Shown here piece after piece: positions 958-2,355 of a stretch of DNA of 64,000 nucleotides. The notes beneath the pieces were generated by a model that did no database searches, was not told the origin of the DNA, and saw only the letters and a program-made list of their open reading frames with translations. Position 1 is the stretch's first letter, and every line of letters starts with the position of its first letter. Position numbers and translations under genes: made by a program. This DNA is from Escherichia coli (lineage in GTDB: Bacteria; Pseudomonadota; Gammaproteobacteria; Enterobacterales; Enterobacteriaceae). Location of the stretch: assembly GCF_024223415.1 (NCBI RefSeq), contig NZ_CP100500.1; one strand, given 5' to 3'.

Positions 958-2355
958 ATTTTTACCCGAGTCGCTAATTTTTGCCGCAAGGTGCTAAGCC
1001 GCGAGGAAAGCGAGGCTGAACAGGCAGTCGCCCGTCCACAGGTGACGGTGATCCCGCGTGAGCAGCATGCTATTTCCCGCAAAGATATCAGTGAAAATGC
1101 CCTGAAGGTAATGTACAGGCTCAATAAAGCGGGATACGAAGCCTGGCTGGTTGGCGGCGGCGTGCGCGACCTGTTACTTGGCAAAAAGCCGAAAGACTTT
1201 GACGTAACCACTAACGCCACGCCTGAGCAGGTGCGCAAACTGTTCCGTAACTGCCGCCTGGTGGGTCGCCGTTTCCGTCTGGCTCATGTGATGTTTGGCC
1301 CGGAGATTATCGAAGTTGCGACCTTCCGTGGACACCACGAAGGTAACGTCAGCGACCGCACGACCTCCCAACGCGGGCAAAACGGCATGTTGCTGCGCGA
1401 CAACATTTTCGGCTCCATCGAAGAAGACGCTCAGCGCCGCGATTTCACTATCAACAGCCTGTATTACAGCGTAGCGGATTTTACCGTCCGTGATTACGTT
1501 GGCGGTATGAAGGATCTGAAGGACGGCGTTATCCGTCTGATTGGTAACCCGGAAACGCGCTACCGTGAAGATCCGGTACGTATGCTGCGCGCGGTACGTT
1601 TTGCCGCCAAATTGGGTATGCGCATCAGCCCGGAAACCGCAGAACCGATCCCTCGCCTCGCTACCCTGCTGAACGATATCCCACCGGCACGCCTGTTTGA
1701 AGAATCGCTTAAACTGCTACAAGCGGGCTACGGTTACGAAACCTATAAGCTGTTGTGTGAATATCATCTGTTCCAGCCGCTGTTCCCGACCATTACCCGC
1801 TACTTCACGGAAAATGGCGACAGCCCGATGGAGCGGATCATTGAACAGGTGCTGAAGAATACCGATACGCGTATCCATAACGATATGCGCGTGAACCCGG
1901 CGTTCCTGTTTGCCGCCATGTTCTGGTACCCACTGCTGGAGACGGCACAGAAGATCGCCCAAGAAAGCGGCCTGACCTATCACGACGCTTTCGCGCTGGC
2001 GATGAACGACGTGCTGGACGAAGCCTGCCGTTCACTGGCAATCCCGAAACGCCTGACGACATTAACCCGCGATATCTGGCAGTTGCAGTTGCGTATGTCC
2101 CGACGTCAGGGTAAACGCGCATGGAAACTGCTGGAGCATCCTAAGTTCCGTGCGGCTTATGACCTGTTGGCCTTGCGAGCTGAAGTTGAGCGTAACGCTG
2201 AACTGCAGCGTCTGGTGAAATGGTGGGGTGAGTTCCAGGTTTCCGCGCCACCAGACCAAAAAGGGATGCTCAACGAGCTGGATGAAGAACCATCACCGCG
2301 TCGTCGTACTCGTCGTCCACGCAAACGCGCACCACGTCGTGAGGGTACCGCATGA
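958..2355 (+). CDS. pcnB: poly(A) polymerase I
   Basis: Protein from [22 protein letters not shown] onward matches PcnB; ORF frame opens at TTG 937 but the known non-canonical AUU initiation codon is at 958-960 (ATT followed by TTT ACC CGA); 4 nt overlap with folK. Confidence 0.9.

Follow-up and report, generated by a model that had tools for sequence, protein, structure and literature searches.

Evidence for AUU initiation of pcnB, the gene encoding poly(A) polymerase I, in an Escherichia coli genome and its relatives

The stretch of DNA analyzed here (referred to as the window; 64,000 nucleotides of an E. coli genome, contig NZ_CP100500.1) carries, near its beginning and on the plus strand, the gene pcnB between gluQ and folK, a gene order that was also found in two distant loci (L087 and L088). 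A gap of 59 nt separates the end of gluQ from the long reading frame, and at the other end of that frame the ATG of folK overlaps the TGA stop codon of pcnB (ATGA at 2352-2355), such a stop/start overlap being the usual layout for translational coupling. The pcnB frame ends at TGA 2353-2355, and the in-frame stop codon upstream of its start is TGA 931-933. The features needed in what follows, with the grounds for each, are these:

2-898, plus strand: gluQ (tRNA glutamyl-Q34 synthetase), the upstream neighbor; list of open reading frames, and annotated as gluQRS here in the RefSeq record of AR_0085
878-906, plus strand: sigma-70 promoter-like site, TTCTCA-17 nt-TATGAT, overlapping the end of gluQ; the sole promoter-like match in 600-1300
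937-939, plus strand: in-frame TTG, the longest-ORF start, probably unused; weak anti-Shine-Dalgarno (anti-SD) pairing, variable codon
948-953, plus strand: Shine-Dalgarno (SD) sequence GAGGTG; invariant in 80/80 species and 4 nt from ATT in every one
954-957, plus strand: 4-nt spacer TACT; fixed in length, variable in sequence (at least ten variants in 80 species)
958-960, plus strand: ATT (AUU), very probably the initiation codon of pcnB; invariant in 80/80 species, the RefSeq start in 7/7 records, and reported in the literature
958-2355, plus strand: pcnB coding sequence, 465 amino acids plus stop, poly(A) polymerase I (PAP I); NF008634, PDB 3AQK/L/M/N, and UniRef PCNB_ECOLI
961-984, plus strand: codons 1-8, TTT ACC CGA GTC GCT AAT TTT TGC; near-zero synonymous variation
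991-993, plus strand: in-frame GTG at codon +11, start of a 454-aa version and probably not the start in the cell; no SD sequence, synonymous-only changes upstream
1111-1113, plus strand: first in-frame ATG (codon 51), possible start of a minor isoform; PMC2939334, with Leu here in 57/80 species
2352-2831, plus strand: folK; list of open reading frames and the RefSeq record of AR_0085

The 465-aa product of the frame scored 997 bits against the NCBIfam equivalog NF008634, "polynucleotide adenylyltransferase PcnB" (cut-off, 702), with protein residues 1-464 aligned on profile positions 1-468 of 469 and the ATT-encoded residue 1 falling on profile position 1, and it scored 523 bits against TIGR01942 (cut-off, 305.65). 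Models of CCA-adding enzymes stayed far under their cut-offs (e.g., NF009814, 176 bits versus 290), and these low scores appear to favor PAP I over a CCA-adding enzyme. The best PDB match was the E. coli PAP I chain 3AQM_A (E = 7e-285), without mismatch over residues 28-442 of the printed alignment, and the UniRef cluster PCNB_ECOLI contains exactly this 465-aa sequence, with Met as residue 1. At the DNA level, positions 800-1200 matched 5,424 of 5,426 complete E. coli genomes at 95-100% identity, with pcnB annotated in all and gluQRS usually; the best match was to strain AR_0085 (99.8%), K-12-type strains being ~98% identical. E. coli K-12 pcnB (UniProt PCNB_ECOLI) has the same 465-aa protein, gene order, 1,398-nt coding sequence, and ATT start, so that the window offers a different strain background but no relevant difference.

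The annotated length of gluQ is inconsistent, at 927 nt (308 codons) in K-12 MG1655 (b0144) and 897 nt (298 codons) in four PGAP records (AR_0085, ATCC 8739, O157:H7 MB41-1, and BL21-RIPL), where the gene starts at the ATG at window position 2. Elsewhere in the window, gathering-level Rfam matches were obtained for tp2, three tandem copies of naRNA4 (REP type), STnc40, and PssrA (37018-37131 [+], 50908-51216 [-], 51620-51689 [-], and 57336-57425 [-]); tRNA genes are absent from it.

Positions 958-969 read ATT TTT ACC CGA (I/M-F-T-R), in frame with the PcnB ORF. Between this ATT and the upstream in-frame stop there is a single canonical start codon, TTG 937-939, 7 codons away; downstream, the in-frame canonical codons are GTG at 991 (codon +11), 1042, and 1048, with the first ATG at 1111. 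The first-pass annotation of this locus, which had placed the start at ATT 958-960, stated that there is neither ATG nor GTG near the N terminus. This is right for ATG, which is not encountered until 1111, but not for GTG, since GTG 991 lies just 11 codons downstream. An ATT codon by itself is trivially frequent; what exceeds chance is not the ATT but its context, that is, the spacing of the SD sequence and the invariance of both. GAGGTG is the perfect complement of CACCUC in the 3' end of 16S rRNA, and the duplex between the two was computed at -9.8 kcal/mol, a value reached by 1.7% of the positions sampled across the window. Of six candidate starts tested, ATT 958 had the best anti-SD pairing, the energies at others being -1.5 (TTG 937), -0.1 (GTG 991), -3.7 (ATG 1111), and -7.9 (GTG 1048) kcal/mol; the SD-like AGGTGA at GTG 1048 sits just ~2 nt from the codon. 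An SD sequence at functional spacing upstream of AUU, as in the infC/pcnB class of starts, is thus present here.

In a comparison of 80 species of Enterobacteriaceae, each represented by one genome, both the ATT and GAGGTG were found in 80/80 species and the gap between them was constantly 4 nt; judged by this sequence conservation, ATT and the SD sequence are under strong purifying selection. Within E. coli, the 60-mer at 930-989 is identical in 5,416 of 5,424 complete genomes, and the single E. coli variant inspected, C956T, lies inside the spacer. The amino acids of codons +1 to +12 are 100% conserved in the 80 species, the 11 distinct variant codons found there being all synonymous, whereas six replacement variants occur at codon -1 (Thr, Ile, Pro, Ala, and Asn), and replacements, stops, and indels at codons -8 to -4. 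Synonymous-only changes after ATT, with replacements, stops, and indels before it, indicate that coding constraint begins at ATT, albeit with the restrictions that codons 1-8, conserved even in their nucleotides, carry little information on coding versus noncoding constraint and that substitutions in codons +1 to +12 are few, so that the synonymous-only argument is thinly based. Phylogenetic invariance of the AUU, with coding constraint starting at it, is a further mark of the infC/pcnB class that was found at this locus. As for the absence of canonical starts, the window has a TTG 7 codons upstream; in 43/80 species, the frame lacks any ATG, GTG, or TTG from the upstream stop to the ATT.

It could be argued that TTG 937-939 is the true start, that the protein has 472 aa, and that ATT 958 encodes an internal isoleucine. 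As the first canonical start codon after the in-frame stop, this TTG is the longest-ORF choice, and the statement in the first-pass annotation that ORF callers open the frame there agrees with the mechanical ORF list, which gives 472 aa; the 472-aa form of the exact protein occurs on at least 1,000 contigs, some of them NCBI-named, and TTG 937 would be on the mRNA if the promoter were the promoter-like site at 878-906. However, TTG 937 lacks an SD sequence, its pairing energy (-1.5 kcal/mol) being matched or beaten by 76% of background positions. Just 26/80 species have TTG as codon -7; two, both Salmonella, have ATG, and in all others the codon is not a start codon. The absence of any canonical upstream start in 43/80 species speaks against TTG initiation as well, as do the replacements, stops, and indels at codons -8 to -4 and the six replacement variants at codon -1. 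Moreover, this codon is not used in RefSeq (7/7 records), and the start given in the literature is AUU. We therefore regard TTG 937 as very unlikely to be the true start, while some initiation there may occur as far as sequence alone can tell.

The two Salmonella genomes with ATG at codon -7 belong to S. enterica subsp. diarizonae and arizonae (L022 and L023, 1480-1503), and no SD sequence precedes that ATG. The cluster of 472-aa Salmonella PcnB proteins has 2,921 member sequences in the protein collection, and the annotated pcnB start may differ between Salmonella and E. coli, despite the conserved GAGGTG-N4-ATT.

The opposite displacement would put the start at GTG 991-993 and yield 454 aa, the version given in older annotations of O157:H7 and by most automatic gene calling on metagenomes. 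This version is found on at least 1,000 contigs and predominates in ENA and Logan calls among the homologues listed, and 80/80 species have GTG at codon 11. Nevertheless, GTG 991 has no SD sequence (-0.1 kcal/mol), and codons 1-10 upstream of it are invariant at the protein level, with six of the 11 synonymous variant codons (at codons 2, 5, 7, 9, and 10) falling in this stretch. In addition, a basic, amphipathic N-terminal motif resembling that of E. coli is present in predicted PcnB proteins of 44-48% identity (P0143, P0178, and P0241), and its presence in such distant relatives suggests that the segment is part of the protein, which argues against GTG 991. Initiation at this GTG is, in our view, extremely improbable.

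Database annotation reflects all of these positions. The curated record of K-12 MG1655 pcnB (b0143, NP_414685.4; 157729..159126, 1,398 nt, 465 codons plus stop), the comparison that had been proposed as a check on the first-pass annotation, starts at ATT, and in six PGAP RefSeq records from different lineages (AR_0085, ATCC 8739, an O157:H7 strain, BL21, YD786, and 2017-02-2CC) the coding sequence begins exactly at the base homologous to 958, making ATT the start in 7/7 RefSeq records sampled (curated K-12 and PGAP). Exact look-ups returned the same protein as 472 aa (TTG 937), 465 aa (ATT), and 454 aa (GTG 991), each on at least 1,000 contigs, together with rarer deposited forms of 437 aa (10 contigs) and 414 aa (39 contigs). 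Among the homologues listed, those at NCBI mostly have 465 or 472 aa, and ENA, Logan, and JGI gene calls mostly have 454, 450, or 447 aa. The expectation that annotation pipelines misplace this start was therefore borne out in part: 472-aa TTG versions are indeed common, but 454-aa GTG versions are equally so, and RefSeq is right in 7/7 records. In other words, misannotation goes both ways, too long and too short, and current RefSeq is right. Codon 28 (1042-1044), the start of the rare 437-aa version, is GTG (Val) in E. coli and ATG (Met) in 72/80 species and adjoins the first residue of the crystallized construct.

Taken with the SD geometry, the 80/80 invariance, the RefSeq records, and the literature, all of which uphold the placement first proposed for this window, we are highly confident that translation of pcnB (958-2355) starts at AUU 958-960 and that this is a weak start capping PAP I.

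An initiation site still farther downstream has a history of its own. Liu and Parkinson reportedly proposed in 1989 that pcnB starts at the ATG now at 1111. According to PMC2939334, the true pcnB start lies upstream of both the promoter and the ATG of the 1989 proposal, but a minor, truncated 414-aa isoform might be made from this ATG via the sigma-S promoter pS1, besides the AUU product. pS1 was active in vitro, as well as in vivo in ppGpp-null stationary cells, and the same study reported two bands in anti-PAP I western blots and a putative SD sequence with AUG (PMC2939334); its primer PS1.rev maps to 1092-1115, overlapping ATG 1111. On the other hand, the ATG is not conserved, codon 51 being Leu in 57/80 species, its SD pairing is weak (-3.7 kcal/mol), the pS1 signal was absent in wild-type cells, and the shorter isoform is unproven according to its own authors (PMC2939334). 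We consider this isoform improbable, though less so than either of the displaced starts described above. The stretch at 1072-1095 (codons 38-45, ATT TCC CGC AAA GAT ATC AGT GAA) has the second-lowest synonymous diversity in the gene (window mean, 0.155). ATG 1111 follows a short way downstream of it, and pS1, the internal sigma-S promoter reported in the literature, is expected in this region.

Upstream of the gene, the promoter-like site at 878-906 may be the pB promoter described in PMC2939334, an identification that we infer. Many of the 80 species have the motif TATGAT...GCCGCTATTTTTT upstream of pcnB. In E. coli, GTGAGCTATG...CCGCTATTTTTT extends over the stop codon of gluQ, the -10 hexamer, and the first part of the pcnB leader, and in L087 (480-600) the same motif occurs twice in tandem. 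E. coli YD786 carries an insertion of an IS4-like (ISVsa5 family) transposase between gluQ and pcnB (L086, 189-1397), with its breakpoint at ~890, which separates the -35 hexamer of the promoter-like site from the -10 hexamer; with the insertion inside this site, transcription of pcnB in YD786 may be altered.

Beyond the comparison set, a large protein search returned mostly homologues from Enterobacteriaceae and gave no wider phylogenetic reach, whereas representatives at 50% identity did widen it. GAGGTG-N4-ATT was found in the aphid endosymbiont "Candidatus Erwinia haradaeae" (Erwiniaceae), whose protein, 62% identical, is annotated from ATT, and also in L087, a 5-Mb genome with a 67% identical homologue. 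At the homologous position, L089 (55% identical) has ATT and L090 (48%) has ATC, with canonical alternatives present in both. In L090 (398-415), a metagenomic locus, the start was called at a GTG that directly follows an in-frame TAG and lies within an AGGTG aligned with the E. coli SD sequence, and ATC ATC occurs 6 nt downstream of the called GTG, where E. coli has its ATT; an AUC start in L090 is possible.

Conservation around the start is not limited to the ATT and the SD sequence. Codons 1-8 have a normalized synonymous entropy of 0.038, the lowest of any 8-codon window of pcnB in the 80 species (gene median, 0.578), and the rare Arg codon CGA is kept in 80/80 of them. In the same genomes, the lowest windows of the neighbors reach 0.41 (gluQ) and 0.53 (folK), and their first windows are unremarkable (0.70 and 0.59, respectively). 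A general 5'-end effect is known for enterobacterial genes; the freeze at the 5' end of pcnB is greater than that effect.

RNA structure is not supported as the cause of the frozen sites. Region 912-1020 folds no better than shuffled sequences (z = +1.22), a consensus fold of 18 species yielded no compensatory pairs, and no Rfam family matched the pcnB 5' region at the gathering threshold. A hairpin can be drawn at 945-971, pairing the SD sequence (CCG.GGUG) with codons 1-3 (UACC.CGG) and leaving AUU in a 9-nt loop, but at -4.7 kcal/mol (z = -0.9) it does not rise above shuffles, and it shows no compensatory changes, two variant sequences staying paired through G-U wobbles. We also looked at an out-of-frame mini-ORF, GTG 951 to TAA 975-977, and rejected it as the cause of the freeze: in species whose spacer is TAAC it is cut down to GTG-TAA, and nonsynonymous changes occur in its second codon.

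We thus have to ask whether the region from the SD sequence through codon 8 (948-984, 37 nt) might be a discrete cis-regulatory RNA element beyond the AUU site itself. This seems rather unlikely, if less so than an isoform from ATG 1111. The region could serve as the candidate binding site of a protein or small-RNA regulator or, alternatively, could act as the weak hairpin pairing the SD sequence with codons 1-3. The freeze may reflect either stringent sequence needs of AUU initiation or an unrecognized regulator site.

For E. coli itself, an AUU start of pcnB is not new; it was already known in 2002, and RefSeq annotates it correctly. It is established in PMC2939334, PMC3561954, PMC5499595, PMC4245954, PMC4447247, and bioRxiv 063800, all of which cite Binns and Masters (2002, Mol Microbiol 44:1287; PubMed 12068810); according to the citing papers PMC2939334, PMC3561954, and PMC4447247, AUU initiation was shown experimentally in that work and limits PAP I. 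Along with infC, pcnB is the only gene in E. coli with a confirmed noncanonical start, and AUU supports ~1-2% of the expression from AUG in reporters (0.02-3% in other constructs) (bioRxiv 063800). An AUU start may likewise be used by pcnB homologues of many Proteobacteria (PMC3561954). Our literature search for start-site (retapamulin) ribosome profiling with pcnB found none, the sole match being an S. aureus paper, and for N-terminal proteomic evidence on PcnB it found nothing direct.

With regard to ribosome binding, papers citing Binns and Masters (2002), including PMC3561954, call the pcnB ribosome binding site "poor." The computed SD pairing is strong (-9.8 kcal/mol), at odds with that wording. 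The marginal hairpin between the SD sequence and codons 1-3 could be what "poor" refers to, a reading without statistical support.

The following picture would account for the weakness of the start. GAGGUG, 4 nt upstream, would position the 30S subunit at AUU, which the initiator tRNA would read although the third base of the codon mismatches the anticodon; because it is the initiator tRNA that reads the codon, the first residue should be Met and not Ile. The throttle at pcnB would consist of IF3 proofreading together with an initiator tRNA that accepts AUU poorly, so that the weak start, which in reporters reaches roughly 1-3% of AUG, would hold PAP I synthesis to some tens of molecules in each cell. 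That IF3 discriminates against AUU starts is supported by evidence reviewed and extended in PMC5499595; the literature yielded nothing on pcnB in particular, and dependence on IF3 at pcnB itself is inferred. Such a cap is important: when PAP I is in excess, it polyadenylates mature tRNAs, halts protein synthesis, and kills the cell (PMC3561954). That the AUU start limits toxic overproduction of PAP I, as had been noted for the window, agrees with the same report, which puts PAP I at ~30-50 molecules per cell and describes cell death upon deregulation.

Two known systems invite comparison. infC, which encodes IF3 and is the other E. coli gene with an AUU start, resembles pcnB in that its AUU limits expression and is phylogenetically conserved; in infC, however, the codon is part of an autoregulatory loop in which IF3, present at ~5,500 molecules per cell, represses its own start (PMC5499595). 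PAP I, in contrast, is no initiation factor and is scarce (~30-50 per cell), and the AUU of pcnB would act as a throttle rather than through product feedback. In PMC4447247, ebpA of Enterococcus faecalis (pilus tip) is described as having a rare ATT start that attenuates expression, like that of pcnB, and likewise an annotated start misplaced at a canonical codon; unlike pcnB, it concerns an unrelated protein and organism, and its misannotated ATG lies 120 bp downstream.

With its two wrong lengths both abundant in public databases, pcnB is useful as an annotation control, since callers restricted to ATG, GTG, and TTG give a protein that is 7 residues too long or 11 too short. The comparative data lend modest added support to the known start, with AUU and the SD sequence invariant in 80 species and recurring in one Erwiniaceae endosymbiont genome. 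The frozen initiation region may merit a mutational test; if a regulator site or hairpin did exist there, it would tune the frequency with which the ribosome accepts AUU. The weak start itself is part of the tight control that E. coli exerts on a toxic RNA-tailing enzyme.
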